From positions 770,545 to 834,544 of the forward strand of contig CAWBOK010000001.1 of NCBI GenBank assembly GCA_963790415.1: a stretch of 64,000 nt of DNA, written 5' to 3'. The notes under the pieces are model-generated. The model saw only the letters and a list, made by a program, of their open reading frames with translations, did no database searches and was not told the origin of the DNA. Source of the stretch: an uncultured Actinomycetota bacterium (lineage in GTDB: Bacteria; Actinomycetota; Thermoleophilia; RBG-16-64-13). The translations under genes were made by a program, and so were the position numbers. Numbering within the stretch: the stretch's first letter is position 1; every line of letters begins with the position of its first letter. This document shows positions 2,610 through 39,840 of this stretch, piece after piece.

Positions 2610-2634
2610 ACGCGCTCACGCCGGGGGTGTCGAG

Positions 2635-10379: not shown

Positions 10380-10514
10380 GAATGGTCCTCCCGACTCGGC
10401 ACTCACCACGAGCCGCAAGGTTCATTGTGCGGCTCGCTCTCACTTCGCTGCTATGGCACTTCGCCACCGACCAGAGATTTCCCCCCTGCGGATTCCATCC
10501 TGGGCCTTCATTCT

Positions 10515-11365: not shown

Positions 11366-11534
11366 CGTATGACTCCTCGTTGCCGCCCCGCGGCGCGACT
11401 GGACCGCTCCCGTGGGCGACGGTAGTGGTGGTGTTGCGCACACTAGATCCCCGGATCGGCGATCGGCGAACCGGATCCCTGGGCGGCGTGTCAATCGCCC
11501 GGATCAGCTACGGCTGACGTGATACGGTCTGAAC

Positions 11535-12344
11535 ATGGCCGACTACATCCTGGTTCTCGGTTCGATAGCGATCCTCACCTGCCCGACACTACTCGCGTGG
11601 CGCAGGAAGGCCGGTCCCTCTCGTTCACGCGGCCGCATGATCGGGCGCGCCGCTCTCGCCGTGTCGCTCGCCTCGCTGATCGTTGGTGTCGGCACCTACC
11701 ATATCTCGAAGTCCCGTTCCTTCCAGATAGTCGGCGGGCTCGTGCCGCGCGTGGAAACAACGGAGAAGGTCATAGCCCTCACGTTTGACGACGGACCAGC
11801 GCCAAAGTACACGGAGGAGATCCTCAGCGTCCTTCGGACTCTCGACGCGCCGGCCACCTTCTACCTGACAGGTCGGGAGTGCGACAACAACCCCGAGTTG
11901 CTCCGGGCGATCATCGACGCGGGACACGAAATCGGCAACCACACGTACTCGCACAGGCGCTTGTATTTCACGCCCGAGGCGACAGTGGCCCGCGAAGTGG
12001 AGCGGACGGACGCCATCTTCCGAGCGGCCGGCTACGACGGCCCGGTCACGTTCCGCATGCCCGGCTGCAAGCGCCTGCTCACGACCCCGATCTACCTGAC
12101 GCGCAACAAACGCACGACGGTGACCTGGGACCTTGAGCCCGATTCGATCGCCGGCGTTGCCGATAGCTCCGACGCCATCGTCGACTACGTCGTCGACAAT
12201 GCCCGCCCCGGCTCGATCGTACTGATGCACGTCATGTACGACTCCCGTGAGTCAACCCGCAAGGCACTGCCACGGATCCTGGAACAGCTGTCCGCGGAAG
12301 GCTATCGGTTCGTCACGGTTTCCGAGATGCTCGCTCTGCGCTAG
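11535..12344 (+). CDS. polysaccharide deacetylase (NodB homology domain)
   Basis: 269 aa. TM anchor followed by ALTFDDGP...ATFYLTG...GHEIGNHTYSHRRL motifs. Confidence 0.85.
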   Translation: MADYILVLGSIAILTCPTLLAWRRKAGPSRSRGRMIGRAALAVSLASLIVGVGTYHISKSRSFQIVGGLVPRVETTEKVIALTFDDGPAPKYTEEILSVLRTLDAPATFYLTGRECDNNPELLRAIIDAGHEIGNHTYSHRRLYFTPEATVAREVERTDAIFRAAGYDGPVTFRMPGCKRLLTTPIYLTRNKRTTVTWDLEPDSIAGVADSSDAIVDYVVDNARPGSIVLMHVMYDSRESTRKALPRILEQLSAEGYRFVTVSEMLALR

Positions 12345-12346
12345 CG

Positions 12347-12369
12347 GGCTGCTGAAAGGTGACGCAGCC
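12347..12369. repeat. GGCTGC/GCAGCC hairpin, member of the CTGCTGAA...CAGCCTCC motif family
   Basis: GGCTGC-tgaaaggtgac-GCAGCC followed by TCC, between the convergent deacetylase and amidase genes. Confidence 0.35.
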
Positions 12370-12377
12370 TCCCTGGA

Positions 12378-13772
12378 TCACCTGAGCGGATCGATGGGAG
12401 TCAGCCTGCCCACGACGCCTTCGATGACCTCGGCCGCCTCCAAGCACAGGTCCTCGCGCCACAGATCTGCGTAGATCTGTATCCCTGTCGGCAGGCCGTA
12501 CGCCACTCCCGTCGGCAGCGCCACCGACGGCAGCCCCAGTAGGTTGCCGGGAGTGATGAACCGCACCGTGTCCAGCACCAACCGCACTCCGGTCCCCGGC
12601 TCAAGATCGGCGTCGACCCGCCACGGCAGCTGCGTCCACGTCGGTCCGATCGCCACGGGGTACCGAACGAAGAACTCCGACCAGAGTCTGGCAAGACGCG
12701 AACGTGTGGCATGGATCTCGCTGTTCGCCTTGTCGCGAGCGTGGCTGCTCCTGCAGACATCCATCACGTAGTCGTACACCGGCCTCGTGATCATCGATCG
12801 GATACGTGGCATCAGCACGGAGAAATCGATGGAGAACAGGTCGAGCCACGTCTCGGTCACGAGGTCGAGTTCCGGCGGTTCCACGTGCTCGATCTCCCAT
12901 CCGGCGCCTGCAAGGATCCTGCCGGCGCGTTCGATCTCGGTGACCGTCTCCGGCGGTATCCCGCCGCTGGGGATCCGCGTCACCAAAGCGGCTCTGCGCG
13001 CGACCGGAGCGGGACCTTGCAAAGGCGCGTCAACGGACCGCGGATCGCGGATGTCACGTCCGGCCAGCACCGCCAAGCCGAGCCGCAGATCGGCGACCGA
13101 CCTGGCCATCGGGCCCTCCACGGCCATGACCTGGGTCGCCATCCCCCAGTCCAAAGGGGGGATCGAATTCGCCCGTGGTATGCGACCCACAGTCGGCTTG
13201 AGCGCCGTGATGCCACAACAATAGGCGGGGTTGCGGAGCGACCCGCCGATATCGTTCCCGAGAGCGAAGGGCGTCATACCGGTCGCCAGCGCCGCGGCGT
13301 CACCTCCGCTCGAGCCTCCCGGCGTGAGCAAGGGGTTCCACGGATTGAGGGTCGATCCGCGCAGTGGATTGTCGGTGGACAGCCTGAGAGCGAACTCGGG
13401 GAGGTTGGTCCGGCCCAGCACGATCCCCCCGGCGGCCTTCATCCGCGAGACGACTGGCGCGTCCCTCGACGGCATCGAGTGCTCCAGGGCCGGTACGCCG
13501 TGGGTGGTCGCGGAACCCACGCAGTCGATGTTCTCCTTGACGGTGAACGGTACCCCGTGGAACGGGCCCTTGACTGCGCCGCTGTCGACGGCATCGGCCA
13601 AGTCCGCCGCCGCAAGGGCGGATTCTCTCAGCACCACGGTGACCGCGTTGACATGTCCGTTCACCTCGTCGATGCGCGCGAGATGGGCTGCGACGACTTC
13701 CCGGCTGGACACCTCCCGCGCAGCGATCAATGCGGCCAATTCGGCCGCGGACCGTCTGCAGAGTCCTTCCAT
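12378..13772 (-). CDS. amidase (amidase-signature family)
   Basis: 464 aa. GGSSGG signature in TPGGSSGGDAAALATG and the typical LHGVPFTVKENI segment. Confidence 0.85.
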   Translation of the reverse strand: MEGLCRRSAAELAALIAAREVSSREVVAAHLARIDEVNGHVNAVTVVLRESALAAADLADAVDSGAVKGPFHGVPFTVKENIDCVGSATTHGVPALEHSMPSRDAPVVSRMKAAGGIVLGRTNLPEFALRLSTDNPLRGSTLNPWNPLLTPGGSSGGDAAALATGMTPFALGNDIGGSLRNPAYCCGITALKPTVGRIPRANSIPPLDWGMATQVMAVEGPMARSVADLRLGLAVLAGRDIRDPRSVDAPLQGPAPVARRAALVTRIPSGGIPPETVTEIERAGRILAGAGWEIEHVEPPELDLVTETWLDLFSIDFSVLMPRIRSMITRPVYDYVMDVCRSSHARDKANSEIHATRSRLARLWSEFFVRYPVAIGPTWTQLPWRVDADLEPGTGVRLVLDTVRFITPGNLLGLPSVALPTGVAYGLPTGIQIYADLWREDLCLEAAEVIEGVVGRLTPIDPLR

Positions 13773-13778
13773 CGGTTT

Positions 13779-14246
13779 CTACCTCACGACACGCACGAAC
13801 CGGAAGTCACACTGACTCGAGCCCTCCATGATGGTCTGTGTGCGCTCAAGCCTGATGTCACGGCTGAAGCCCTCGGCCATGGCGAAGTCCCGATTGCAGC
13901 TGAACAGATAGCCGAGTTCGGGGAGTCCCAATTCCTTGTAGAAATCGGCGTATCCGCACCGTGTCACGTTGAACCGAAGCTCGTCGGCCGAACTCACCAC
14001 CGACTCCATCTCCAGACTGCCGCCACCCGAGGCGACACCGAAGACCGCATCCATCCCCGCCAGGTCCGGGCCGAACTGCTGAGCCCATCGCCCTCCGTCT
14101 TCTCGAGCAAGCTCCAAGACGGCCTCACGAGCGATTTCGTTCGCGCGATCCGTTCCGATCGCCCGCTGAAATGCCTGGACCATGGGAATCAGTACCCCGG
14201 CCTCGATCTTTCGGCGTTCAAGATGAGTGATAGTCGGTCCTGACAT
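13779..14246 (-). CDS. L-2-amino-thiazoline-4-carboxylic acid hydrolase-like protein
   Basis: ATG at 14246 after GGGAGG. FNVTRCGYADFYKELGLPELGYLFSCNRDFAMAEGF...QCDFRF resembles the ATC-hydrolase family. Confidence 0.6.
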   Translation of the reverse strand: MSGPTITHLERRKIEAGVLIPMVQAFQRAIGTDRANEIAREAVLELAREDGGRWAQQFGPDLAGMDAVFGVASGGGSLEMESVVSSADELRFNVTRCGYADFYKELGLPELGYLFSCNRDFAMAEGFSRDIRLERTQTIMEGSSQCDFRFVRVVR

Positions 14247-14362
14247 CCGCGCCTCCCTCTTTATCGGTACCACATCCTACCCCGAGTCGGTGAGACGTGA
14301 CCCTCTCTGCAGCGAACCCGCCGAAGAGCTATCCTATGGGGGCGCGTCAAGAAGGAGTCGCG

Positions 14363-15472
14363 ATGCAGCCTGGTGGATACTGCGAGATGTGCTCGCGTTG
14401 GGTGTGGGTGAACGGCCGGGGTGAGTGCCAGTTCGGCCACCCGGCGAGCGCCGTCCGTGAGGTCCAGCCGCTCAAGCCGCGGAGCGGAGAGGATCGCGCG
14501 CCCACGAGTTCGGCCGCGGGGTCTACGTCGTTGGTCCTCGCGACCCCGGGCGCCCTCGCTGCTATGAACGTCGGCACGCCCACTCCCGACGCGCCTCCCG
14601 CGGCGGCCCGTCCCTACATCGGCCCGTTCCCGCCCCGAAAGCGCTCGACCGGCCGGTGGTGGTGGCGCCACTCCCTGTGGATCGTATGGACATTCTCCCT
14701 CGGCCTGTTCAACTGGCTAGCCTTCCTGTACATCGGAGTGCGGGCACGGCGGTGGCTGTGGCTGCTCGCGAGCCTCGTCTACCTGCTCCCCATCGCCCTC
14801 ACCGTCGCCTCCGTGGGCAGTGGATACCTGGGCCTCGCCGTCGGCTTCCAGCTGTTCATGTCAGGCGTGTCCATGCTGCACGCGTTCGTGGCACGGCCCC
14901 GGTACCGGGCCATCATGTTCGGCGATCCCCCGAGTGGGACAGCTCCCGCCCCGCCACCGGTCCTGGTCCGCACCCCGCGCGCCGCTCTTCCTCGGGGGCT
15001 CGACGACGACGTTGCCACGGTGATCCGGGACGCGCAGACCCAGGTGGACGAGATCGCCGCCGTGGCTGAGGCGATCGAGAAGCCCGACGTCCGCCGAAAG
15101 GTCACCGTCTTGTGCCGGACCGCGGAGAGCATCCTGCTGGAACTGCGCAACGAGCCGGGCCAGGTGTCGCTGGCCAGACCCTTCCTGAGCTACTACCTGG
15201 AAGCGGCCAATCGCATCGTTCGCGGCTACGTCGATCTGTCTCTGCGGAACCTCGATTCCCTCGATGCGCGCACCACGCGCGCGCGGGCCGAGGCCTCCCT
15301 CGACAGCATCCAGCGGGCATTCGACAGCCAGTTGGCCGGTCTCCTGCAACACCAGGTGCTCGACCTGGACAGCGAGATCGCCCTGCTCGAGAAGACGGTG
15401 CAGATGGACACGTTGATGAGCATGCCCATGTCACGTCCCGACCCCGTACCCAAGACTGGGGGAGCCAGATGA
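14363..15472 (+). CDS. zinc-ribbon / TM / XpaC-like (5-bromo-4-chloroindolyl phosphate hydrolysis) protein
   Basis: ATG at 14363 after GAAGGAG. CEMCSRWVWVNGRGECQFGH, then 3 TM segments, then a C-terminal helical domain LCRTAESILLELRNEPGQVSLARPFLSYYLEAANRIVRGY. Its stop overlaps the telA start. Confidence 0.65.
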   Translation: MQPGGYCEMCSRWVWVNGRGECQFGHPASAVREVQPLKPRSGEDRAPTSSAAGSTSLVLATPGALAAMNVGTPTPDAPPAAARPYIGPFPPRKRSTGRWWWRHSLWIVWTFSLGLFNWLAFLYIGVRARRWLWLLASLVYLLPIALTVASVGSGYLGLAVGFQLFMSGVSMLHAFVARPRYRAIMFGDPPSGTAPAPPPVLVRTPRAALPRGLDDDVATVIRDAQTQVDEIAAVAEAIEKPDVRRKVTVLCRTAESILLELRNEPGQVSLARPFLSYYLEAANRIVRGYVDLSLRNLDSLDARTTRARAEASLDSIQRAFDSQLAGLLQHQVLDLDSEIALLEKTVQMDTLMSMPMSRPDPVPKTGGAR

Positions 15473-16725
15473 ACGACGAGACCCACCCGGCAGGATCCGA
15501 CCCGTCGCCCCCGTACGCGGCCCCTTCCGGCCCGCCGGCGTCCACGGACCCTGCTCCCGGCGGCCCCGGAAACGAGTTGGTCCCTGCGGCCGGGGCCCAC
15601 GGCGGGCCGGTGCCCGCGGTCGGCGTCGTGAGCGCGGTAGTCTCCGCGGAAGCCCCCGGCGGAGTACCCGGCGCCGAGGCCGCGACCACACGGGCTCTGA
15701 CCGCGGAAGAACGCCTCCGCGTAGACAAGATCAAGGAGACGGTGGACATCACCGACCCGAACATGGTGATCCAGTACGGCCTCCCGGCGCAGAGCAAGAT
15801 CGCCGCCTTCGCCGACTCCCTGCTCGCCGACCTGCGGACCAAAGACGCCGACGCCGCCGGGGAGGCCATGACCGAGCTCCTCGCCAAGGTGAAAGAGCTC
15901 GACGTCGACGGACTCACCAAGGGGTCCCAGGGATCGCGCATCCCCCTCGTGGGGCGGTTCGTAGACCGCGTCAAGCGCTTCGATGCCCGCTACGAGAAGC
16001 TGTCCGTGACGGTGGACAAGCTCCTGACAGTCCTCGAGCGCACCCGCATGGGCCTGCTCAAGGACATCACCGTGCTGGACAAGATGTACGAACTCAACCT
16101 CGACCACCTGCGGCAACTCGACCTCTATATCCAGGCCGGTGGAGAGATGCTCGAGGAGCTCGAGACGACACGGGTGCCGAGCCTCGAGTTGGAGGCCCGC
16201 ACCACGAGCGACGCCCTCGCGGCCCAACGGCTCGCCGACCTCCGCCAGAGCGTCACCCGCTTCGAACGGCGCCTTCACGACCTCAAGCTGACGCGCATGA
16301 TCTCCATCCAGACGGCGCCCCAGGTCCGCCTCATCCAGGGGAACGACCAGAATCTCGTGGAGAAGATCCAGAGTTCCATCACCACCACGGTCCCCTTGTG
16401 GAAGAACCAGATCGTCATCGCGCTCAGCCTCTACCGCCAGCAGCAGGCCCTCGCCCTCCAGCGGGCGGTCACGGACACGGCGAACGAGCTCCTGGTCAAG
16501 AACGCCGAGCTCCTGCGCACAGGTTCGGCCGACGTGGCCCGCGAGACCGAGCGCGGCATCGTCGACGTCGAGTCGCTCCAGAAGGTCAATGACGAGTTGA
16601 TCGCGACGCTCGAAGAGACGATCCGGATCCAGGAGGAGGGCCACACGCGCAGGTTACAGGCGGAGGGCGAACTCCTCAGACTGCAGAGCGATCTCAGGCA
16701 GAAGCTGGTGGAGATCCGGGGGTAG
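15469..16725 (+). CDS. telA: TelA-family toxic anion resistance protein
   Basis: ATGA overlap with the upstream gene. VIQYGLPAQSKIAAFADSLL...KYEKLSVTVDKLLTVLERTRMGLLKDITVLDKMYE is typical TelA. Confidence 0.8.
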   Translation: MNDETHPAGSDPSPPYAAPSGPPASTDPAPGGPGNELVPAAGAHGGPVPAVGVVSAVVSAEAPGGVPGAEAATTRALTAEERLRVDKIKETVDITDPNMVIQYGLPAQSKIAAFADSLLADLRTKDADAAGEAMTELLAKVKELDVDGLTKGSQGSRIPLVGRFVDRVKRFDARYEKLSVTVDKLLTVLERTRMGLLKDITVLDKMYELNLDHLRQLDLYIQAGGEMLEELETTRVPSLELEARTTSDALAAQRLADLRQSVTRFERRLHDLKLTRMISIQTAPQVRLIQGNDQNLVEKIQSSITTTVPLWKNQIVIALSLYRQQQALALQRAVTDTANELLVKNAELLRTGSADVARETERGIVDVESLQKVNDELIATLEETIRIQEEGHTRRLQAEGELLRLQSDLRQKLVEIRG

Positions 16726-16894
16726 GCGGCTGCGGGGCTCGCCCCACATGGGGCCGCCGCGAACCCGTCCTACCGGCCAGGTCGAAGTCCCCCCTCGAGG
16801 CTCGGCTGAAGTCAGGCCACCCGGCTGAATCCGTGGTGCCCTCGCGAACGTATCGTTGATGCAGGAAGCATCCACGGAGAGCGGGGGTAGGATC

Positions 16895-19126
16895 ATGTCA
16901 TCGCAGTCATTTCTCGAATCCCTTGCCCGGCGGTGCGGCGCCCATCCCTGGCGCACGCTGTCTGCTTGGGCGGTGGCGTTGGTCGTCGCCGTGGCGCTGA
17001 CCGTGACGTTGCTCGGCGGCGCCCTCACCAGCGATGGCGCCGCGACCAACAACCCCGAGTCCGATCGGGCAGACAAGCTGATCAGCGCACGGCTCCACAC
17101 TGAGGACACCATCAACGAACTGGTCGTGCTGAAATCGACGGAGCGCACCGTGGACGACCCCGTCTTCCAGCAGCGCGCCAACGCCATGTTGGCCGCGGCC
17201 ATCGCGCTCGGACCCGACGTGGTCAAGGGGGGCGCTACCTACACCATGGTGCCCGACCCGTCTTTGATCTCCCGTGACCGTCACGCCACGGTCGTACCAG
17301 TGTCGATGACCGGCAGCCAGAGCGAGATCGAGAAGAACGTCGACGAACTGTCGGCGGCCGTCAAGAAGGCGGGCCAGGGGAACGGCTTCGAGGTGCTCGT
17401 CACCGGCGGGCCCAGCATCAACCGAGACTTTACCCAGATCGGCGAGAGCGACCTGAAGAGCGGCGAGGTGTTCGGCGTAGGAGTGGCCCTGGTCATCCTC
17501 GTACTCGTATTCGGAGCGCTCGTGGCCGCCGGCATCCCCCTCCTACTGTCGGTGGTCTCCATCGTGATCGCCATGGGCATGGCCGCCGTCGCCGGGCAGT
17601 TCCTTGAGCTCAGCACGTTCATCACCAACATGATCACCATGATCGGTCTGGCGATGGGTATCGACTACTCTCTCTTCATCGTCTCCCGCTACCGCGAAGA
17701 GCGGGGCGCGGGCCGGCCCAAGCTCGATGCGATCGCCCGCACCGGCGGGACGGCCGGCCGGGCCGTGCTCTTCAGCGGGGGCTCGGTCATCGTGGCTCTC
17801 GGCGGTCTGCTGCTCGTGCCCATGAGCATCTTCCACAGCATGGCCCTGGGCGCGATGTTCGCGGTGATGGGCGCCATCCTCGCCGCCCTCACGCTGCTGC
17901 CCGCCCTGCTCGGGCTCCTTGGCGACCGGGTGAACAGCCTCCGCGTCCCCTTCCTCAAGAGCGCCCGCAACGACGGACACCCCGGAGAGACCGGCTTCTG
18001 GCATCGGATCGCCCACGGCGTGATGGCCCGCCCGGTCGTCAGCCTGACCGTCGCGTGCCTCGTGCTCCTGGTGGCGGGTAGCTTCTACTTCCAGCTGGAT
18101 GAAGGATCCGTCGGTGTCGACACCCTTCCCGCAGACAAAGAGTCTCGGCAGGCGTATGACCTCCTGTCCACGGACTTCCCCTCCTCCCTGATGGCCAACG
18201 TCCAGATCGCCGTGGACGGCGCCGCCGCCGATCCGGCCGTCAAGCAGGCGGTAGCCTCCCTCACGGCCGCCATCGAGGCGGACCCCGCCTTCGAGGGCGC
18301 CATCACCACCACGACCAGCCCGGCCGGTGACCTGACCGTGCTCACCTTCCCGCAGGCGTCCGGGCAGACCGACGAGCAGGCCCGGGGGGCCGTTGGGCGG
18401 CTGCGGACCCAGGTGATCCCGCAGGCCTTCGCCGGCGTCCCCGCCACCGCGCTCGTCACCGGACAGGCCGCCTACGGGGTCGACTATCTGGCCACCATCG
18501 ACCAGTACACTCCTTGGGTGTTCCTGTTCGTGCTGGGCCTCAGCTTTATCTTCCTCACCGCAGTCTTCCGGTCGCTCGTGGTGCCGCTGAAAGCCATCCT
18601 CATGAACCTGCTGTCAGTGGGCGCCGCCTACGGGCTCCTGGTGATCGTGTTCCAGAAGGGATGGGGCGCGGGGTTGCTCGGTCTACAGCAGGTGGACTAC
18701 ATCGAGGCATGGATCCCGCTCTTCCTGTTCGCGATCCTCTTCGGCACCTCCATGGACTACCACGTCTTCCTGCTCAGCCGCATCCGCGAGCGCTTCGACG
18801 ACGGACACAGCAACACCGACTCGGTCGCCTTCGGATTGGGATCGACCGCGAAGATCATCACCGGCGCGGCGATCATCATGGTGGCGGTGTTCAGTGGTTT
18901 CGCCTCCGGCAGTCTCGTCATGTTCCAGCAACTCGGGTTCGGGTTGGCGGTGGCCGTGCTCCTCGACGCCACCATCGTCCGCACCGTGCTCGTGCCGTCC
19001 GCCATGCGCCTGCTCGGCGATGCCAACTGGTGGCTGCCCAAACACCTCAACTGGCTGCCCGACCTGCGCGTGGAGCGTAGCACCCGGCCGAAGCCCACCA
19101 CTCCGGTGGTGAGTACCGATAGCTAG
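16895..19126 (+). CDS. MMPL-family (RND superfamily) membrane transporter
   Basis: About 743 aa. Two 6-TM blocks with the repeated GIDYSLFIVSRYREE / SMDYHVFLLSRIRE motifs. Confidence 0.85.
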   Translation: MSSQSFLESLARRCGAHPWRTLSAWAVALVVAVALTVTLLGGALTSDGAATNNPESDRADKLISARLHTEDTINELVVLKSTERTVDDPVFQQRANAMLAAAIALGPDVVKGGATYTMVPDPSLISRDRHATVVPVSMTGSQSEIEKNVDELSAAVKKAGQGNGFEVLVTGGPSINRDFTQIGESDLKSGEVFGVGVALVILVLVFGALVAAGIPLLLSVVSIVIAMGMAAVAGQFLELSTFITNMITMIGLAMGIDYSLFIVSRYREERGAGRPKLDAIARTGGTAGRAVLFSGGSVIVALGGLLLVPMSIFHSMALGAMFAVMGAILAALTLLPALLGLLGDRVNSLRVPFLKSARNDGHPGETGFWHRIAHGVMARPVVSLTVACLVLLVAGSFYFQLDEGSVGVDTLPADKESRQAYDLLSTDFPSSLMANVQIAVDGAAADPAVKQAVASLTAAIEADPAFEGAITTTTSPAGDLTVLTFPQASGQTDEQARGAVGRLRTQVIPQAFAGVPATALVTGQAAYGVDYLATIDQYTPWVFLFVLGLSFIFLTAVFRSLVVPLKAILMNLLSVGAAYGLLVIVFQKGWGAGLLGLQQVDYIEAWIPLFLFAILFGTSMDYHVFLLSRIRERFDDGHSNTDSVAFGLGSTAKIITGAAIIMVAVFSGFASGSLVMFQQLGFGLAVAVLLDATIVRTVLVPSAMRLLGDANWWLPKHLNWLPDLRVERSTRPKPTTPVVSTDS

Positions 19127-19230: not shown

Positions 19231-19845
19231 CTAGCACCCGGCTTTCGCCTCGGAAACAACGGCGGGGAATGCCAACGCCTCGACCAACACAAAGGCCGCC
19301 TGCAGTGCCGACGTCGGACAGAGGGGAAAGCACTCCTTGCAGTCCCAGCACTCTCGGGCCGCGATCTCGGGGACGAAGCTGATCTCCCGTCTTGCCCCTC
19401 TGTCGACGAAGCCGACGGCGTTCGCCTGCTTGACCTCGGCGCAGTACCGGACGCACAGGCCGCAGTGGATGCAGAAGGAGGCTTCTTTCTCGAAGCGGTC
19501 TCTGTCTGCTTCATACGTCTGCGCGAGGTCCTGCAACACCAAAGAATCCGGCGCGTGGGCCAGCAACAGCTCCAGGATCATCTTGCGGATCCTGTCGATC
19601 TTCTCCGATCTGGTCCGTACGACCAGGCCGTTCTCCACAGGGTAGACGCAGGCGGCGACGAGCCGCGGCCAACCGCGCACCTCCACCTCGACGGTGCAGA
19701 GACGGCAGCCGCCGTGGGGATCCAGCTTCTCGTGGTAGCAGAGGGTCGGAATCTCTATCCCGGCCTTCTGCGCCGCCTCGAGGATGGTCATCCCCTCGTG
19801 CGCCTCGACCTCTCTTCCGTCGATCTGCAGCGTAGTCCCGCTCAT
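19231..19845 (-). CDS. bamI: 2Fe-2S/4Fe-4S protein, NuoG N-terminal-like (BamI-like)
   Basis: 204 aa and intact. [49 protein letters not shown] plus [11 protein letters not shown] and [12 protein letters not shown] motifs. Last gene of the cluster. Confidence 0.7.
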
Positions 19846-21781
19846 GTCTCTTGCTCTTTCTGACGACGGTTCTTTCGTCTTCGGGGAGGGGAGGCGGAAC
19901 GGGCTCGCCGGAGAGCTTCTTCACGGCACCATAGCGGGCGGGGCAGACTTCGAAGCACGTGCCGCACTTCGTGCACTTCTCCTGATCGATCACGTGGATC
20001 ACGTTCCTGTCGCCCTCGATCGCCTCGGCGGGGCAGTTCTTGGCGCAGAGCATGCAGCCCCGGCAACTGCCGGGTCGATGTAGTACGCGATCAGCTCCTT
20101 GCAGGACGAGGGCCGGGCACCGCTTCTCGTTGATGTGCGCCTCGTACTCGTCTCTGAAGTAGCGGAGCGTGCTCAGGAACGGGTTGGGGGCGCTCTTGCC
20201 GAGAGCGCAGAGGGAGGCCTCCTTGGCCACCTCGGACAGTTCCTCCAGGAGCTCGATGTCGCCCTCCCTGCCCCTGCCCTTGGTGATGTCGGTCAGGATC
20301 TTGAGCATCTGCCGCAGGCCCTCGCGGCAGGGGACGCACTTGCCGCACGACTCGTCGGTGAGGAAGTCGATGAAGTACCTGGCGACATCGACCATGCAGG
20401 TGTCTTCGTCCATGACGATCATCCCGCCGGAGCCCATCATCGAGCCGGCCGCGGTGAGCTCGTCGAAGCCGACCTCCAGGTCCAGCATCTCCTCGGGGAT
20501 GCACCCGCCCGACGGTCCCCCGGTCTGCACGGCCTTGAACTTCTTGCCGCCGGGGATGCCGCCGCCGATGTCGTAGATGATCTCCCTGAGCGTCATCCCC
20601 ATGGGCACTTCCACCAGGCCGGTGTTGGTGATCTTGCCGACCAGGGAGAAGATCTTCGTGCCCTTGCTCTTCTCGGTTCCGATCTTGGCGAACCAGTCGG
20701 CGCCCTCGTTGATGATCAGCGGGACGTTGGCCCAGGTCTCGACGTTGTTCAGTACGCTGGGCCTGTCCCACACACCCTTGACGGCCGTGTGGATGTACTT
20801 CGACCGCGGCTCTCCCACCCTGCCTTCCAAGGCCGTCATCAAAGCGCTGGACTCGCCGCACACGAAGGCGCCGGCCCCTTGGTGCACCGTGACGGCGAAG
20901 TCGAAGCCGGAGCCCAGGATGTTCTTGCCGAGAAGACCGTACTCCTCGGCCTTCCGGATGGCGATGTGGACGTTCTCCACCGCCAGCGGGTACTCCTGGC
21001 GCACGTAGATGTAGCCCTCGTGGGCGCCGATGGCGTAGGCGCCGATGGTCAGCCCCTCGAGCACGGAGTGAGGGTTCCCTTCCAGAAGGCTCCGGTCCAT
21101 GTAGGCGCCGGGGTCCCCCTCGTCGGCGTTGACGATCACGTACTTCGTCTCTCCCGGAGCGTTGCGGGCCTCTTCCCACTTCCTGCCCGCGGGGAAGCCG
21201 CCGCCGCCCCTGCCCCTCAGAGTCGGACTTCTTGACTTCCTCCAACACGCCGTTCGGCGGTCATCGTGGAGAGGGCCTTGGCCAGCGCCCGAGTAGCCAC
21301 CGATCGCCAGGTAGTCGTCGATGTCTCTTTGGATCGATGCTTCCGTTGGCGCCGAAGACGAGGCGCTCCTGGTGCTTGTAGAACGGGATCTCGCCCTCCC
21401 GCTCGATCCGTCTCGCCGGTGGCGGGGTCCACGTAGAGCAGACGCTCGACGACCTGCTTGTCCTGCAGCGTCTGGGAGACGATCTCGGGGACATCCTCGG
21501 GCTCGATCTGCAGGTAGCAGACTTCCTCGGGATGCATGACGACGATCGGGCCGCTCTCGCAGAACCCGTGACAACCGGTCTTTCGGATGTCCACTTCGTC
21601 GCTCAAGCCCCTGCTCCTGCGAGCTCCTCCTCGAGACGCGGCGGCGACCTCCGCGCTCCCAGAAGCGTGGCACGCGGACCCCGAGCAGAGCGTGACGCAG
21701 GGCCTCTTCGGGTCCCTCTTGGACAGGAGGTCGCTCCTGAATTCCTCCAGCTGCGGCGGGTGATTCGATCCGGGGCATCAT
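19842..21781 (-). pseudogene. bamH: NuoF/HydB-like flavoprotein with thioredoxin-like 2Fe-2S N-domain (BamH-like), multiply frame-disrupted
   Basis: The N-terminal 190 aa must be read across 6 successive +1 shifts (near 21757, 21412, 21328, 21288, 21254, 21222) to recover [90 protein letters not shown]. The rest is open and carries NADH/FMN/FeS motifs. There is a compensated frameshift pair at 20064-20112. The zero frame has no stop before 19511; a TGA overlapping the bamI ATG exists only in another frame. Confidence 0.75.
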
Positions 21782-21786
21782 TCGTC

Positions 21787-22261
21787 CTAAGTCGTAGTTC
21801 TTCAGCACGTCCGCGGTGCCGGCCGGCGTCGATCTTGCCGTGCGGCCTGCCGTCGACCTCCATGACCGGCCCCAGAGCGCAGCAGCCGAGGCAGTTGACG
21901 GTCTCCAGGCTGAACTTCAGGTCCAGGTCCGTCTCGCCCGGCATGATCCCGGTCAGGTCCTGCACCGAGTCGAGGACCCGGTCGGCCCCCCGAACATGGC
22001 AGGCCGTACCCATGCAGACGTGGATCTCGTGACGCCCCTTGGGCACCAGGCTGAACGCCTTGTAGAAGGTGGCGATGTGCTGGACGCGCGTCATAGGGCA
22101 CGTGCAGCCTCTCGCTCACCCGCTCCAGGACCTCCCTGGGCAGCCAGTGCTTCTCGGCTTGGATCTCCAGCAGTATCTGGATGAGCGCGCTTGCGTCCGC
22201 ATCGATACCTGTCGATGATCTGCTCGAGTCGGTCGTCACTCACGGTCGTTGCCTGCACCAT
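21787..22261 (-). pseudogene. bamG: NuoE-like thioredoxin-type 2Fe-2S protein (BamG-like), frame-disrupted
   Basis: ATG at 22261 after GGAAGGAAG. Pieces MVQATTVSDDRLEQIIDRY / DASALIQILLEIQAEKHWLPREVLERVSERLHVP / VQHIATFYKAFSLVPKGRHEIHVCMGTACHVRG...[16 protein letters not shown] / ADVLKNYD lie in successive +1 frames (shifts near 22200, 22095, 21833). The 3' end is uncertain. Confidence 0.7.
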
Positions 22262-22976
22262 CTTCCTTCCCCTCACCCACAGCCCGCTCTTGCGCCCTAG
22301 GCCAGAGCGAAGCGCTTGCGGCTCTCGTCGTACCTGACCAATCCCTGCCGTGACGCACTGTTGATCTGCTTCGCCACGTCCGACGGCTTCGACGCCCAGG
22401 CGCTCAGACAGCTCTCCCGTGGAGAGGGGGCTGTCTCCGAGGAGCGAGACGATCTGGCTCAAGGTCAGCTGCTCTCCGATCAGGTCGTCGAAGAGGCGGT
22501 CGAACTCGTCGCTGGCGAAGAACTCCTCGTACGCGGTCTGCGACTTGACGGGCACCCTCAGCCTCTCCCGTTCCACCAGCTTGATGTAGGGGATCAACCT
22601 CGTGGCCGCCTCGAGCTTGAACTTCAGCGTCATCGTCATCGATGCCCTCGCCCTCGCCCAGAGGTCCCAGCTGTTTCACGTGTGAGGAGAAGTCGTTCAT
22701 CACTTCCGCGAAGCGGATACCTTCGGACGACGACAACCATTCGAGCCGCAACCTATCGGGGTTCAACCCGATGTGTTCCAGAAGCTTCTTGCATATGTGC
22801 ATCATGCTCAAGGCATCGTAGTTGCCTTCGGTTATGTAGTGACATTCGCCCAGCCAGCACCCACCGACGAACACCCCGTCATTGCCATTCGAGAAGGCCC
22901 GGAGTACGAAGGCCAGATCGATCCTTCCGGTGCACATAAGTCGGACGATCCTGATGTCAGAAGCATATTGTAGTCT

Positions 22977-23009
22977 GGAAACTCCAGCCAAGTCCGCGGC
23001 GGAGTATCC
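22977..23009 (-). promoter_or_regulatory. candidate bacterial SECIS hairpin
   Basis: Starts directly after the UGA: GGAUACUCC-GCC-[GCGGACUU]-GGC-U-GGAGUUUCC. About 12 bp with one U.U mismatch and one bulge. The apical loop starts with G, 12 nt after the UGA. Confidence 0.4.
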
Positions 23010-23012
23010 TCA
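23010..23012 (-). other. in-frame TGA, probable selenocysteine codon
   Basis: Codon 19 of the MvhD-like gene, in the context C-N-W-TGA-G-Y-S. Cys-type homologs have C-N-W-C at this position. Confidence 0.65.
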
Positions 23013-23103
23013 CCAGTTACACAAGAACCCGAGGATCCTCGGCTTGAACTCGATTCCCGTACTCATCTCGACCTCCTTTCTGTGGTAGTGATCGCCGGTC
23101 CTT

Positions 23104-26100
23104 TCAGCAGACGACTTCCGCGAGGGCCGGAACCGCCGCGTCGATCTGGAGCATGATCTCCTCGTCGGTGTAGTGCTTCAGATAGATGGCCGCCGTGGGG
23201 CACTTGGCGTTGCAGAGGCCGTCGCCTTTGCAGAGCACGGGGTTGACCACGGCCTTCTTGCCGTGCTGGGTGTCGTGCAACTCGATGGCGCCATAGGTGC
23301 AGGCTGAGATGCAGGCGCCGCAGGCGACGCAATCCTCCTCCTTCACCTCGCACACCGAGCCCGACGCGGTGACGGTGTCGTGCGAGAGAAGGGTGATGGC
23401 CCGGCCGGCGGCACCGTAGGCCTGGCTGATCGTCTCCGAGAGGTGCTTGGGATAGTGGGCCGTGCCGCACAGGAAGATCCCGTCGGCGGCGAAGTCCACC
23501 GGCCGCAGCTTCACGTGGGCTTCCTGGAAGAAGCCGTCGGGGCTCAACGACACCTTGAACAAGCCGGGACATCTCGAGCGTCCCCCGCGACGAGACGACG
23601 GCCGCCGACAGCGCGAGCGCGTCGGCGTCGATGGCGATCCTCTGCCCCAGGATCGGATCGGTCACGGCGACCCTCAGGACGCGCCGACCGTCTTCGTCGA
23701 CGGCCTCCACCACCGGCTTGTCCTCGGGCTCGTAGCGGATGAAGCGCACGCCCCGCTCCGACGCCTCGCGGTAGTAGTCCTCACGGAAGCCGTAGGTGCG
23801 CATGTCCCGGAAGAGGACGTAGATGTCCATCTCGGGGTTGATCTCTTTGAGCTTCAGCGCGTTCTTGATGGCCTGGCTGCAGCAGATCCGGGCGCAGTAG
23901 TTCCGGTCCGGCTGCCGGCAGCCGACACACTGGATCATCACCATGCTCTGGGCGTCGGTCAGCCACTCCGCCCCGTCGGCGATCTGCTCCTCCAGCTCGA
24001 GCTGGGTCACGACCCGCTCGCCGGTGCCGTAGGAGTACTCGGTGGGCGTGTATTCCTCGGCGCCGGTGGCGAGGATGGCCGCTCCGTGGAGGATCTGCCT
24101 GACCCTGCCTTCGGACTGCACCGTCGTGACGAAGTTGCCCACGTAGCCGGAGACGTCGGTGATCGTGGCGTCTGTGGAGACGTGGACCAGCGGGTGGCGA
24201 TACACCTTGCGCACGAGCTCGCTCAGGAAGGCCTGGATGTCGAGCCCTTCCAGCGTGTGGCGGAGCCTCCGCGCCATGCCCCCCAGGTCCGATTCCTTCT
24301 CGACCAGGTAGACCTCGAAACCCTGCTCGGCCATGCTGAGGGCGCTGGTCATGCCGGCCACGCCCCCACCGACCACCAGCGCCGTCTTGTTGACGGGCAG
24401 CTCGAACTCCTCGAGCGGCTCCAGGAGGCGAGGTACGCGCCACCGACATCCGCACGATGTCCTTCGCCTTCTGGGTGGCCAGCTCCTTCTCGCGGCTGTG
24501 CACCCACGAGCAGTGCTCGCGGATGTTGGCCATGTCGAAGAAGTACTGGTTGATGCCGCCTTCGCGCAGCGTGTCCCGGAACAGCGGCTCGTGCGTTCTC
24601 GGGGTGCAGGCAGCCACGACCACGCGGTTGAGACCCTTCTCACGGATGGTGTTCGCTATCTGCGCGGCCGCGTCGGTGGAACAGATGAACAGTCCCTCTT
24701 CCGCGTGAACGACATTGTCCAAGGTCAGGGAGTAGTCGACCACCCCGGGCACGTCGACCACGCGGCCGATGTTGGAACCGCAGTGGCACACGAAGACGCC
24801 GACCCGGGTCTCCTCCTCGGAGACATCCCTCTCCACCGGGTAGACCCGATCCTTGGCCAGCCTACCCCGGCGGTAGTCGAGGAGTTGACCGCATTGCGAG
24901 CCGGCCCCGCTGGCCGACATCACCGACTCCGGGATGTCGATGGGTCCCTGGAAGGCCCCGCTGATGAAGACGCCGGGGCGGGAGGTCTCCATGGGGTTCA
25001 CCGGGTTGGTCTTGCAGAATCCGTACGAGTTGAGCTCGATGCCGAATGTCCTGGCGAAGTCCTGGGCATCGGACGGCGGGCTCATGCCCACCGAGAGCAC
25101 CACCATGTCGAACTCTTCCTCCACCACCCCGTCCGCGTCGGTGGCGTAGCGGACGGTGACGTTCTTCGTCTCGGGGATCTCTCTGCCGATGGAGACGTAG
25201 CTCCGGATGAACCGCACCCCGGGAAGCCTCTCCGCCCGCTGATAGAAGCGCTCGAAGTCCTTGCCGTACGACCGGATATCGTTGTGGAAGATGGTGGCCT
25301 TGGCGTCGGCGTCGTGATCCTTGGTCAGGATCACCTGCTTCTGAGTGTACGAGCAGCAGACCGCCGAGCAGTAGGTGTTGGCGCCCGGGATGACCTGCCG
25401 AGAGCCGACGCAGTGGATCCAGGCGATGTTGTGAGGATGCCGCTTGTTCGAGGGCCGCAGGATCTCGCCCTCGAACGGCCCGGTGGAACACAGCAGCCGC
25501 TCGTAGTCGAGACTGGTTACGACGTTCTCCATCGTCCCGTAGCCGTAGTCGCCCCTCAGTCCCGGGATCGAACACCTCGTAGCCCGGGGACAGGACGATG
25601 GCTCCCACGTTTAGCTCGATCTTCTCTGCCTTCTGATTGAGATCGATCGCGTCGTTCTTGCACACGCCCTCGCAGATGGCGCACTTCTTGTCCTGCAGAT
25701 ACCGGCAGCTGTCGTCGATGTACGTGACCAGCGGGACGGCCTGCGAGAAGTAGATGTGGACGGCCTTGTTGTCGGACAGCTCCTGGTTGTACGGATCGGG
25801 GATCTTGACCGGGCAGTACTCGACGCACGTGCCGCACCCCGTGCACTTGTCCTCGATGATGCGCCGGGGCTTCTTCGTGAGCGTGACCGTGAAGTCTCCG
25901 GCCTCTCCTTCGACGCTGTCGACTTCCGTGTAGGTGAGTATCTCGATGTTGGGGTGTCGGTCGCACTCGATGAACTTCGGCGATTCGATGCACATGGAGC
26001 AGTCGTTGGTGGGAAAGGTCTTGTCGAGCTGAGACATCTTGCCGCCGATGGTCGGCAGCTTCTCGACCAAGTAGACCTTGAAGCCCGAGGTGGCAAGGTC

Positions 26101-26223
26101 CAGGGCGGCCTGAATGCCGCTGATCCCACCACCGACCACCATGACGTCGCCGAAGTTGCCCGGCATGGGGCTCGCTATGACGTCCAGGTGAGAGAGTGCG
26201 TTGTGAAACGGTGCGTTATCCAC
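23104..26223 (-). pseudogene. bamE: large double HdrA-like FAD/FeS protein with ferredoxin inserts (BamE-like), three frame disruptions
   Basis: GTG start. Four pieces in successive +1 frames (shifts near 25548, 24433, 23563): VMVVGGGISGIQAALDLA...GYEVFDPG / LRGDYGYGTMENVVTSLDYERLL...IHCVGSRQ...AKDIVRMSVARTS / LLEPLEEFELPVNKTALVVGGGVAGMTSAL...IQCVGCRQ / LFKVSLSPDGFFQEAH...CVACGACISAC...CKGDGLCNAKCP. Confidence 0.8.
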
Positions 26224-26275
26224 TTCGTTCTATCCTCATCGGGTTGTCGCCGTCTCCAACTACCGTCGCCGTTTC

Positions 26276-27427
26276 CTAGACAACTGCTCGGACGATCTCG
26301 GTGATGTCCTTGATCTCGACGGCGTCGCTGTCTTCGCGGTTCATCCGGCTGTCTTCGAAGTTGGTGATGCAGTAGGGACAGGACGTGACCAGCACGTCGG
26401 CTCCCGCCTCGACCGCCTGATCGAGGCGGAGGTCGGAGAACCGTTCTCCCTTCACCGTCTCCATCCAGATCCTGCCGCCCCCGCCCCCGCAACAGAGACT
26501 GTCCACCCGCGTGTCCGGCATCTCGGCGAGCTCCAGCCCAGGTATCCTCTCGAGGATCTCCCGGGGCTCGTCGTACACGCCGTTGTGGCGTCCCAGGTAG
26601 CACGGGTCGTGGTACGTCACCGTCTTCGCGTACTCCTCCTTCAACTCCAGCCTGCCGTCGGCCATCAGTTGGAGAAGGAACTGCGACATGCTGACGACCT
26701 CGAAGTCCACCCGGAACTCCGTGTACTCGTTCTTGAACGCGTGGTAACAGTGCGGGGACGAGACCAGGATCTTCTTGACCCCATGGTCGATGAAGGTCTT
26801 GATGTTCTCCCTGGCCAGGCGCTTGAACAGGTCCTCGTTGCCCGTCTTGCGGATGCTCTCCCCGCAGCAGTTCTCGGCGGCGCCGAGGATCCCGAAATCG
26901 ACCCCGGCCTGCTTGAGCAACTCCGCCGTAGCTCTGGCCACCTTCTTCAAGCGCGGATCGTAGGCGAGATAGCAGCACGGGAAGTAGAGGTACTCCATGC
27001 CCTCCTTGAACGCCTTTACCCCGAGCCCCTCGGTCCACTTGGTCCGGTCTTCGCGCTTCTCGTTCAGCGGGTTCCCTTCGCTCTGGAGACTCGCGCTGAT
27101 CGTGCGGATAGGCTGCACGTGCTTGGGGAACACCTTGTACTCGGTGGCCATCCTGCGCAGCGCCACAGCATCCTCTATCTGCTGCACGTCCCGGGGGCAC
27201 CGCTGAGGGCATCTGCCGCAGGTAGTGCAGCGCCAGATGTCTTCGGTCTCGATGTCGGTCATGCCGAAGGTGGCCTCGCGAATGACCTTGCGCATACTGA
27301 AGTTCGTGACTCTATTCCAAGGGCACACGGTGTCGCACAAGCCGCATTGATAGCAGCGCTTGACCTGTTCGCCGCCGCTGTCCTTTATGACATCGACGAT
27401 CTCCCTATAGTCGGACAGATTCTCCAC
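26276..27427 (-). CDS. bamD: HdrD-type FeS/CCG-domain oxidoreductase (BamD-like)
   Basis: 383 aa and intact. CYQCGLCDTVCP and CTTCGRCPQRCP ferredoxin motifs, plus two CCG motifs (YFPCCY..NCCG; YHDPCYLGR..CCGGGGG). Confidence 0.8.
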   Translation of the reverse strand: MENLSDYREIVDVIKDSGGEQVKRCYQCGLCDTVCPWNRVTNFSMRKVIREATFGMTDIETEDIWRCTTCGRCPQRCPRDVQQIEDAVALRRMATEYKVFPKHVQPIRTISASLQSEGNPLNEKREDRTKWTEGLGVKAFKEGMEYLYFPCCYLAYDPRLKKVARATAELLKQAGVDFGILGAAENCCGESIRKTGNEDLFKRLARENIKTFIDHGVKKILVSSPHCYHAFKNEYTEFRVDFEVVSMSQFLLQLMADGRLELKEEYAKTVTYHDPCYLGRHNGVYDEPREILERIPGLELAEMPDTRVDSLCCGGGGGRIWMETVKGERFSDLRLDQAVEAGADVLVTSCPYCITNFEDSRMNREDSDAVEIKDITEIVRAVV

Positions 27428-27462
27428 TCTGTATCTACACTCTCTTCTTTCGCGGCGGTGGT

Positions 27463-28014
27463 TTAGCTCTTGATGGACATTCTGGCAACAGTCTCCACGA
27501 GCTTCTGGAGTCCGTACTTGTCCACCAGGGAATCCAGTCCCACCTCGAGTTCACCGCGCTTCTCTTCCTTCACGGATTCCCGGTCGTCCTCGCGTTCGAT
27601 GTACGTCAGCGCATCGCAGCGACAGACCTGGACACACCAGGGCTCCGTGAGAGTCTCATCTTCCTCGCACATATCGCACTTCAGAGGGAGGCCGGAGTCG
27701 GGCTCTTTGAAGTAGTCCCGCGCCGGGCAGGAAACCCCACAGAAGCTGCACTCGGAGTACTCTTTTCCTTCGATCGTGTAGATGTGTCTGCCCGTGCACT
27801 CGGCCTTCGTGTAGTCGCCCGCACGTATCGGGACGTAGACGTCTTTCAACTCGTCCAGCACGACGCGGATGCGCGACCTCGCCGGGTTCGTGCTGCTGAA
27901 TCTCGGATGGGCGTGGAACGCGGAACAGGCCAGTTCGCACGCGCGGCAGCCGATGCACTTGTCGATATCGACTTTGATTTCCTTGATCATGTTCGTCTTG
28001 GCGTCATCAGTCAC
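27463..28014 (-). CDS. bamC: multi-[4Fe-4S] ferredoxin-like subunit (BamC-like)
   Basis: 183 aa and intact. CIGCRACELAC, CSFCGVSCP and CDMCEED...CVQVCRCDA cysteine clusters. Sits immediately downstream of the AOR-family gene. Confidence 0.75.
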   Translation of the reverse strand: MTDDAKTNMIKEIKVDIDKCIGCRACELACSAFHAHPRFSSTNPARSRIRVVLDELKDVYVPIRAGDYTKAECTGRHIYTIEGKEYSECSFCGVSCPARDYFKEPDSGLPLKCDMCEEDETLTEPWCVQVCRCDALTYIEREDDRESVKEEKRGELEVGLDSLVDKYGLQKLVETVARMSIKS

Positions 28015-28044
28015 GACACATAACCCTTCACTCGCGCACCCCTC

Positions 28045-29991
28045 CTACCCCGCCACGGTCGCCGTCGCAGCCGCGCCCGCATCCGCGGTCAGGATGCCCC
28101 GCCGGACGAAATCGTCGCTCACGTAGCCCAGGCCCAACGAATCCAGCGTCGTCTTTCGTGGGAATGCCGTCGTTCGTCCACCCCTTGAACTCGTAGTAGG
28201 CGTCGAGCAGCTTCTCTTCGTTCTCCGGTTCCCGCTTCTTCCAATGGTCGGCGGGCGGCTTCTCGTCGACCCGCCGCATGCCCCTGCGGATGTTGAGGGC
28301 CCGTACCAGAGTTGCGGTTGCGTCGCCCGATCTCCCAGAGAGAGGTGTCGTCGAGATCGAACCCGGTCGCATGCGAGATGAACCCGGGCAGGTTGTAGAC
28401 GTGGTACGGCGGCCGGCCACCGAATTGACCCCTGAACGACGACAGGAACGCGCACGTGCCTATGGCGTCGTCGATGTAGTGCATGGTCTCGTTCCAGTCG
28501 GCGATGTTGACCGCCGCCTCAAAAGACTGGTGGGTGCGTGGTTCCCAATCCAGGTACCACTTCTTGAACTTCTCCGGAGCCGCGTCCCACCGGTCGACGA
28601 ACCGCTGTCTCTCTTCCTTGTCGGCGATGGGGATCTGGGGATACGACCCTTCGGTCTGGGTGATGTTCATCTTCTCGCCGGTGGCGTACATGAGGAAGTA
28701 CGGGTAGTTGACCGTGCCCAGCTTGATGGGCACCTGCTCGAACTTCTTCATGGTGTTGTGATCGAACGCCTCGGCGCCCTTGCCGATCTGGCGGGCAGCC
28801 CAGTAGACACCGTTCGCCAGGATGTCGCCGATGCCCTCCCGGCGAACGATCTTCTCGACCAGGTAGAAGAAACGCCCCGCCGTGTCGGGTGGGAATCCCG
28901 GCACGTCGTCGTCGGTGAGGATGCCGGCTTCGTACAACTCGACTGCGAAGGCGAGGAGCTGGGGCGTGGTGAACCCGTCAAGCCCGTATTCCTGGGTGAG
29001 GCTGAGCATGCTGTAGTTGAAGTCCAGTTCCTCATATGCCGCCATGGCATATGTCAGCTTGCTGTAGCACTTGAGCTGGAATATCTGGCGTCCCGGGTAG
29101 CGGATGCCGACATGGCAGTCCTTCGGACAGTTGTAGCAGCCCGTCCACCGCACCTCGTACTTGCGGGTGGTCTCCTCCCACTCCTTGGCGCGCTCCTCGG
29201 TCCATACACCCCTCACGCGATCGCGGGCGTTGCCCCAGGCGAAGTTGTCGACGTGCCACGTCTCGTCGTGCTCGTGCCGGAAGATGCACCCGCAGTCCGG
29301 GTTGTCGTAGATCTCCTTGTACTGCGCGTTGCAGATCTCGAAGAGCTCCGCGGGCCGAGCGACGTTGATGTCCTTCGTGCCTCGAACGGCGATCGCCTTC
29401 AGCCGTTTGTCGCCCATGATCACACCGACGCCCCGGGAGGCGCTGGAGTTGGAGTGCTCGATGGAAGACATGTAGACGCGGTTCTCGCCGGCCAGGCCGA
29501 TGGCCGCCACCTGGGCCTCGGGCTGCTTCAACTCCTCCTTGATCAGCGCGCCGGTCTCTATCGCGCCCTTGCCCCGGAGATGCGTGGCGTCACGGATCTC
29601 TATCTTGTCGTTGTGGATCCACAGATAGACCAGATCGTCCGCCTTACCGCGGATCACGATCTTGTCGAAGCCGGCATGCTTGAGTTCCGGCCCGAAGAAT
29701 CCGCCGAAGATGGAATGCGAATACAGGTTGGTCTGCGGCAGAGAAGGTGTCGACACAGGTACGATTGGCGCCGGGGACGGGCGTGCCATGCAGGATACCC
29801 GTGCTGAAGATGAGCAGATTGTCGGGCGAGAAGGGTTCGACGTCGGGGCCGACCCTGTCCCACAGTATCTTCGCGGCCGTGCCCTGGCCCCCCAAGTGCA
29901 GCGCGGTCAACCTCGGGTCGGTCTCTACCCTCTCGAGGCTTCCTCGGGACAGATCGACCTCCAGGTTGAACCCTGTCTCTGCGTACCTCAT
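28045..29991 (-). pseudogene. bamB: tungsten-pterin aldehyde:ferredoxin-oxidoreductase-family subunit (BamB-like), three frame disruptions
   Basis: ATG at 29991. MRYAETGFNLEVDLSRGSLERVETDPRL...GTPVPGANRTCVDTFS / PQTNLYSHSIFGGFFGPELKHAGFDKIVIRGK...(about 520 aa).../ TLVRALNIRRGMRRVDEKPPADHWKK...GWTNDGIPTK / TTLDSLGLGYVSDDFVRRGIL. +1 shifts near 29743, 28311 and 28153. N- and C-terminal strings closely resemble BamB as I recall it. Confidence 0.8.
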
Positions 29992-38376: not shown

Positions 38377-38553
38377 AGCGCGCCTCTCCTGATTTGGCGG
38401 GTTCCTGCCATTCTTCTCATCATACCGGCTGAACCTGCCGTGTGCTCCACGAAACGCGGAGCTGTAACCCTCGGCGACGTAGGTCTTCCCCTTACCTGAT
38501 TTTCACGCCGCACGAGCGCGCGCTTGACAGTTCGGAACCGCGACCCGGCCGAC

Positions 38554-39831: not shown

Positions 39832-39840
39832 GAGGGCCCC

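Follow-up and report, generated by a model that had tools for sequence, protein, structure and literature searches.

The 64,000-nucleotide stretch of contig CAWBOK010000001.1 (assembly GCA_963790415.1) analyzed here, called the window below, carries on its minus strand, from 29991 to 19231, a complete operon, bamBCDEFGHI, which by homology, gene order, and domain make-up is that of the class II benzoyl-CoA reductase, the ATP-independent enzyme that depends on tungsten and selenium. As deposited, five of its eight genes are broken by single-base insertions and deletions (indels), 24 in all. These disruptions are very probably residual consensus errors laid over an intact operon and would not be present in the DNA of the organism. 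A technical cause is favored because 28 of the 30 indels found in the window run in the +1 direction, mostly outside homopolymers; because the corrected genes contain no nonsense codons and have low ratios of nonsynonymous to synonymous substitution (dN/dS); because relatives carry intact genes; and because changes in the same direction strike unrelated genes, and similar lesions are seen in metagenome-assembled genomes (MAGs) built from Nanopore reads only.

The bam Operon

Searches with homologues (tblastn), Pfam, and the PDB recover eight co-linear genes in the order B-C-D-E-F-G-H-I, all on the minus strand, and the BamBC, BamDEF (HdrABC/MvhD-like), and BamGHI (HydABC/NuoEFG-like) modules are all found. 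The first gene, bamB (28045–29991), is assigned to the tungsten-containing catalytic subunit of the AOR family. Its frame-corrected product matches chain A of PDB entry 4Z3W over residues 1–635 of 643 (E = 9.4e-250), the next PDB match, AOR (1AOR), reaching only 1e-64, and it contains Pfam AFOR_N and AFOR_C at full length. An Fe-S subunit of 183 amino acids is encoded by bamC (27463–28014), and an HdrD-like subunit of 383 amino acids with CCG domains by bamD (26276–27427); the matches of BamD carry CCG and Fer4 domains, and the protein is 90% identical to two intact proteins, P0001 and P0003. The product of bamE (23104–26223) is a fused HdrA-like flavoprotein, 1038 amino acids long after correction, with Pyr_redox_2/Fer4 matches in Pfam. 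The MvhD/FlpD-like adaptor specified by bamF (22297–23066) is a predicted selenoprotein that, once corrected, spans FlpD profile positions 1–123 of 123, and the corrected NuoE/HydC-like [2Fe-2S] subunit from bamG (21787–22261) spans positions 2–144 of 145 of 2Fe-2S_thioredx. Corrected BamH (bamH, 19842–21781), the NuoF/HydB-like FMN/NAD subunit, has full-length Complex1_51K and NADH_4Fe-4S domains and is 88–89% identical to the intact proteins P0121 and P0122. The last gene, bamI (19231–19845), encodes a NuoG-N-terminal-like Fe-S subunit of 204 amino acids that matches Fer2_4.

The resemblance to BamBCDEFGHI of Geobacter metallireducens extends to the gene order and to the domain make-up of each corrected subunit, and BamB matches the class II enzyme of that organism (4Z3W, which is BamBC) from end to end. 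G. metallireducens belongs to the Desulfuromonadales, whereas the host of the present operon is probably a Thermoleophilia-like actinobacterium, and the sequence deposited here differs from the Geobacter system in its 24 single-base indels. Judged by these comparisons, the locus belongs to a known enzyme system and is unremarkable within it, while its host is somewhat unusual.

Catalogue of Single-Base Changes

Frame disruptions were located with our own frameshift-aware protein-to-DNA aligner, which allows 1-nt insertions and deletions, using as references the bam genes of a Smithellaceae MAG (L001), an Acidobacteriota MAG (L004), and a closer relative (L087). Further events were found by blastn alignment of the DNA to closer relatives and by realignment at a lower frameshift penalty. 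The relatives used throughout are four short-read contigs with bam DNA 83–91% identical to that of the window, from related lineages but a different strain: L081 (an ENA megahit assembly), L082 (a JGI assembly), and L087 and L088 (Logan assemblies), L087 holding the whole operon on a 29.9-kb contig.

The cluster contains 22 insertions and two deletions, each of 1 nt, in 10.8 kb. An earlier, sequence-only reading of this DNA had proposed 17 single-base frame changes. All of them were recovered within about 20 nt of where that reading had placed them (its positions are given in parentheses below), the corrected alignments need them, and each is one extra nucleotide with conserved residues directly on either side. 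In bamB the three insertions lie at 29736–29739 (29743), 28310–28314 (28311), and 28150–28157 (28153). Those in bamE are at 25559–25567 (25548), where L082 reads GGG-CTGAGG and the window GGGACTGAGG; at 24425–24430 (24433), where relatives read CCTC-CCT and the window CCTCGCCT; and at 23560–23566 (23563). Two insertions interrupt bamF, at 22628–22632 (22630) and 22390–22392 (22380). Four fall in bamG, at 22201–22203 (22200; TATC-ATG in relatives, TATCGATG in the window), at 22092–22098 (22095), at 21827–21830 (21833), and at 21793, two codons ahead of the TAG stop; the last is seen against both L087 and L088.

The most heavily affected gene is bamH, with ten insertions and two deletions. Single insertions are found at 21751–21760 (21757), 21407–21411 (21412), 21324–21326 (21328), 21285–21289 (21288), and 21249–21255 (21254), and at 21221–21222 (21222), just ahead of an LRGRGG motif. 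Alignment to the DNA of L087 and L088 and realignment at the protein level place three more within 21605–21640, at about 21640, 21620, and 21606; these amount to three extra bases, so that the frame returns. A compensated pair, supported by both protein and DNA alignment, occupies 20069–20108, with an insertion at 20107–20108 and a deletion at 20069–20071. The second deletion, at 19853 (AAA to AA, against L087 and L088), lies three codons ahead of the stop codon and abolishes it, so that the bamH frame continues to 19513. The sequence-only reading had thus recognized the 17 changes and the compensated pair correctly and had overlooked five events, those at about 21640, 21620, and 21606 and those at 21793 and 19853.

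With the stop of bamH lost, an open reading frame caller reports a 765-amino-acid product at 19511–21808 that overlaps bamI in another frame. Two sets of paired 1-nt gaps against L087 (28608/28602 and 20277/20270) proved, when the codons were read, to be alignment artifacts of in-frame substitutions. A spacing of about 34–37 nt among four of the bamH insertions (21324, 21287, 21252, and 21222) is treated as chance because the other sites do not continue it.

The events are far from evenly spread. Fifteen of the 22 insertions lie within 1.4 kb (21221–22631). Density is highest in bamG and the beginning of bamH and declines to either side, and a clean stretch of 2.6 kb over bamC and bamD lies inside the cluster. 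As had been claimed, bamC, bamD, and bamI are single intact reading frames whose alignments need no correction; the probability that 24 uniformly placed events would miss all three is 0.003.

Comparison with Relatives

All bam genes are full length in L081, L082, L087, and L088, and blastn alignment shows a 1-nt gap in the relatives at each insertion site that they cover. The comparison with sister genomes, which had been proposed as a check, thus found four intact relatives. The alignments of bamE with L081 and L082, over 3181 and 3171 nt, contain exactly three gaps, each of 1 nt. No frameshift events separate bamC from that of L087, and against L081 its only indel consists of two paired 3-nt gaps that keep the frame. 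Where these lineages differ by natural indels, the changes are 3 nt long in bamC, 9 nt long in the neighboring amidase gene, or intergenic.

The amidase and glyoxalase genes that follow bamI in the window are also found downstream of bamI in L087. The sharing of both the bam cluster and these neighbors argues against a recently acquired island, and the suggestion that the locus had been horizontally acquired is not supported.

Mutation Spectrum and Selection

No indel in the cluster exceeds 1 nt. As we read the alignments, about 18 of the 22 insertions place a base unlike either of its neighbors and so do not extend homopolymers, and A, C, G, and T are inserted about equally often in a region that is 60–66% G+C. 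Most natural single-base insertions lengthen an existing run, and bacterial indels are commonly biased toward deletion, varied in size, and prone to occur at repeats. The spectrum of a genuine pseudogene, with nonsense mutations and with indels of varied size that are deletion-biased and linked to repeats, is not the one seen here: the corrected genes have no in-frame stops apart from the conserved TGA at codon 19 of bamF.

Calculation of dN/dS on the frame-corrected genes, also proposed earlier, gave Nei-Gojobori values of 0.04–0.12 for all eight genes against three relatives. The disrupted genes (0.06–0.12) do not rise above the intact bamC, bamD, and bamI (0.04–0.12), nor above their orthologues: the first 190 codons of bamH, where insertions are dense, give 0.114, and the same segment gives 0.119 for two intact relatives. 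Within 4 nt of the insertion sites, mismatches to relatives are no more frequent than the background.

These observations bear on the possibility that the locus has decayed. Very recent pseudogenization, with bamC, bamD, and bamI spared by chance, would account for the strong clustering of disruptions in one operon (P = 1e-12, see below), and a catabolic operon that the cell can do without could plausibly be lost. It would have to do so through a set of changes in which 22 of 24 are +1 insertions, mostly outside repeats, although natural indels commonly show deletion bias, varied sizes, and a preference for repeats. No nonsense mutation or larger indel accompanies them, and dN/dS does not increase even in the densest segment. 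The accumulation of at least 19 neutral indels should have brought many times more substitutions, and no excess is found near the sites. The sparing of three genes would itself be a rare accident (P = 0.003). Pseudogene clusters are known from reductive genome evolution, as in Mycobacterium leprae. The bam operon resembles such decaying operons in having many frame disruptions in adjacent genes of one pathway; it differs from them in that nonsense mutations and multi-base or large deletions are absent, deletions do not predominate, dN/dS is not relaxed, and the lesions extend beyond the operon. Pseudogenization is thus very unlikely, and the idea of a decaying locus, one of the explanations offered earlier, finds no echo in genes whose dN/dS is equally low with and without frame shifts.

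It is also conceivable that the insertions are real and that the genes are expressed by recoding, through programmed +1 ribosomal frameshifting or a correction of the transcript at each site. Nearly all shifts are in the +1 direction, and the coding sequence on either side of every shift is under strong purifying selection, as recoding would require. A search for a motif common to the sites (homopolymers, GATC, TCGA, slippery heptamers, and stop codons) yielded nothing convincing; TCGA occurs at several sites, but the inserted base itself creates several of these. In our own reading, no motif, slippery sequence, stop codon, or downstream structure is common to the 22 sites. The extra base is missing from the orthologues wherever the relatives cover a site, and there are two −1 events as well, one of which removes the bamH stop. 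We know of no system with some 20 recoding sites in one operon, which counts further against a proposal that we regard as barely credible. Taken more broadly, the notion that the extra bases are genomic, whether through recent, localized, insertion-biased mutation or through tolerated recoding, would require about 22 insertions with other signs of decay absent, and is highly improbable.

The Rest of the Window

A codon-usage model trained on the long open reading frames of the window itself was used in a seven-state Viterbi segmentation, which recovers the bam frame changes and thus provides its own positive control. Same-strand junctions between frames were checked for a stop and a start codon, and those that lacked them were examined by translation and with Pfam. 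Only six further frame changes emerged from this combined analysis in about 45.5 kb of other coding sequence. All six run in the direction of a +1 insertion and split single genes.

One lies on the plus strand in a multicopper oxidase gene, at about 4427 (4420–4435), as seen by Viterbi segmentation, junction analysis, translation, and Pfam. The others are on the minus strand. Two, at about 48175 and 47957 (within 47950–48180), interrupt a PMT_2/YkcB-type glycosyltransferase gene (46794–48997) by Viterbi, junction, and Pfam evidence; and one, supported in the same way, is found at about 53551 (53545–53556) in an AlaX-like (tRNA_SAD) gene (53104–53823). Two more, at about 52855 and 52561 (within 52555–52860), fall in a short-chain dehydrogenase gene (52294–53018), which is the clearest split gene of all: adh_short profile positions 1–42, 51–149, and 152–194 are matched in three successive frames.

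Events thus occur at 2.23 per kb in the cluster and at 0.13 per kb elsewhere (binomial P = 1e-12). The contrast reported earlier, about 2 against about 0.2 disruptions per kb, is borne out, though the window is not clean elsewhere. The genes cited in that comparison (the trp operon, MMPL, telA, the amidase, the histidine kinase/response regulator pair, HD-GYP, and the radical SAM gene) are each in one frame, and the trp genes (59813–62564) align over 2752 nt with an ENA contig (L089, sample ERZ27247694) at 94.9% identity with no gaps. A bias of 28 out of 30 toward the +1 direction has a binomial probability of 9e-7. The presence of changes of this kind in unrelated genes tells against pseudogenization of the operon. 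It is the pattern expected of an artifact, in which the same type of lesion strikes unrelated genes and is missing from the high-accuracy assemblies of relatives (83–91% nucleotide identity).

The multicopper oxidase gene (3515–4910) seems to end early, after 4682, its Cu-oxidase_2 match stopping at position 68 of 137, and about 230 nt without coding signal follow. This may be a further patch of errors or a true truncation. Additional candidates that appeared at a lower Viterbi penalty (1549–1674, 9281–9550, and 38494–38554) were rejected as low-complexity linkers or true gene boundaries. Rfam and ARAGORN found no RNA genes or tRNAs that would explain the long stretches scored as noncoding.

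Long-Read Assemblies and the Origin of the Extra Bases

Long-read assemblies are documented to contain indels that fragment genes (PMC12007338), and a direct parallel is afforded by two bam clusters, L070 and L045, from Nanopore-only MAGs of the Microflora Danica project that were assembled with Flye and one round of Medaka (PMC12313526). Each has four or five single-base frameshifts, mostly non-homopolymer insertions, and four sister MAGs have none in their bam genes. Both are Acidobacteriota MAGs: L070 (about 9712–17574) is from MFD02979.bin.2.93 and L045 (about 774–10826) from MFD00032.bin.2.131. The two share an extra C at the same position of BamH (reference residue 612), which could reflect either a systematic error or a true departure from the reference.

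The changes in the window resemble long-read indel errors in being single-base, in splitting conserved genes, in their patchiness, and in their absence from the short-read assemblies of relatives, and they are of the type seen in L070 and L045. It is therefore the remaining suggestion of the sequence-only reading, a locally poor consensus, that gains support from the spectrum and context of the insertions, from dN/dS, from the other genes of the window, from the Nanopore-only MAGs, and from the intact relatives. The errors, almost all spurious insertions, would have come from an error-prone assembly, probably one that was long-read-only or incompletely polished. They would gather where read support is locally poor, most of all around bamG and the beginning of bamH, with smaller patches at 4.4, 48, and 52.5–53.5 kb. 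Local low coverage, mixed strains, or cross-mapping of paralogues could each produce such clustering.

Several points weigh against this interpretation. The technical origin is deduced rather than observed. The 17-fold enrichment, together with the 2.6 kb free of events that bamC and bamD occupy within it, would have to be explained by some local cause. Published accounts describe long-read consensus errors as mainly homopolymer-associated and those of Nanopore as deletion-biased (PMC12007338), and the nearly pure, mostly non-homopolymer insertions found here are not that textbook pattern, although they match L070 and L045; the local density, with 15 events in 1.4 kb, is also extreme. Finally, none of the bam relatives found exceeds about 90% protein identity, which is too distant to give the original sequence exactly.

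One form that the artifact could have taken is a mixed or chimeric consensus, in which the bam operon behaves as a repeat across strains, genomes, or paralogues and misaligned variants are turned into insertions. In long-read assemblies, the collapse of allelic variants is a documented source of indel errors and of apparent frameshifts (PMC8445201). Many genomes with bam genes contain two or three paralogous clusters (L028/L030, L037/L038/L040, and L042/L043 are examples), and metagenomes hold related populations with bam DNA that is 87–91% identical. The insertion sites are not enriched for differences from known relatives, however, and nothing obvious suggests that the genes hit by the smaller patches elsewhere would be shared. 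The background rate of mismatches near the gaps leaves haplotype collapse neither supported nor excluded. The downstream flank is syntenic with L087, so at least that junction is not chimeric. A mixed consensus is a possible but rather doubtful version of the assembly-error explanation.

The Selenocysteine Codon of bamF and a SECIS-Like Element

The TGA at 23012–23010 on the minus strand, codon 19 of bamF in the context FLCNW-TGA-GYS, is on comparative grounds a selenocysteine (Sec) codon and not a lesion. Relatives have a stop at the same position, and in G. metallireducens BamF, too, residue 19 is selenocysteine, its codon followed by a conserved hairpin; Sec19 has been reported for that protein, together with a cryo-EM structure of the whole complex (preprint 10.64898/2026.04.10.717634).

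Directly downstream, at 22965–23009 on the minus strand, lies a hairpin (CTGGA-GUU-UCCAG) that is likely a bacterial selenocysteine insertion sequence (SECIS). Over the 45 nt that follow the TGA, identity among the window, L081, L087, and L088 is 100%, although their loci overall are only 83–91% identical, and such conservation would fit a functional SECIS. The Acidobacteriota loci L004 and L007 retain the hairpin as well, and folding of the RNA gives z = −2.6.

In BamE, the reading frame is uninterrupted in the window, L081, L087, and L004; an in-frame stop near residue 70 is present in L001, L032, and L086 and is probably a second Sec codon. The use of Sec or Cys in BamE thus seems to vary between lineages.

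Host and Neighborhood

The best named match of TrpD is a Thermoleophilia MAG (76%), with one ENA contig reaching 97% at the protein level, and that of BamD is an Actinobacteria MAG (84%). The contig, by these matches, probably comes from an uncultured Thermoleophilia-like actinobacterium, which would be an uncommon carrier of a class II benzoyl-CoA reductase. In a scan of species-representative genomes the identity of BamD was at most 75%, and no exact matches to BamC, BamD, or BamI were found in public protein collections.

A 111-nt inverted repeat (39826–39936 and 40426–40536; 83% complementary, 489 nt apart) sits in a stretch of about 1.1 kb without coding signal (39764–40858). Related copies of about 165 nt occur in the bamD–bamE and bamE–bamF spacers of L081 and L082 but not in the spacers of the window. 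The element looks like a small mobile repeat of the MITE (miniature inverted-repeat transposable element) type that is common to the lineage.

Implications

The main value of these results is cautionary. An annotation that accepted the deposited sequence as it stands would list five pseudogenes, and the organism would be recorded as incapable of anaerobic benzoyl-CoA reduction. Removal of 22 bases and restoration of two yields a complete operon under purifying selection, with its Sec codon and SECIS-like element conserved. In genome scans, consensus errors and decay can be separated without recourse to reads, by the size, direction, and context of the indels, by the dN/dS of the corrected frames, and by comparison with short-read contigs from relatives. 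Were the insertions genuine after all, their nearly exclusive +1, non-repeat spectrum would imply an unknown mutational or recoding process.

For the organism, the implication is a modest ecological one: the corrected operon would place a strictly anaerobic enzyme for the reduction of aromatic rings in a Thermoleophilia-like actinobacterium.

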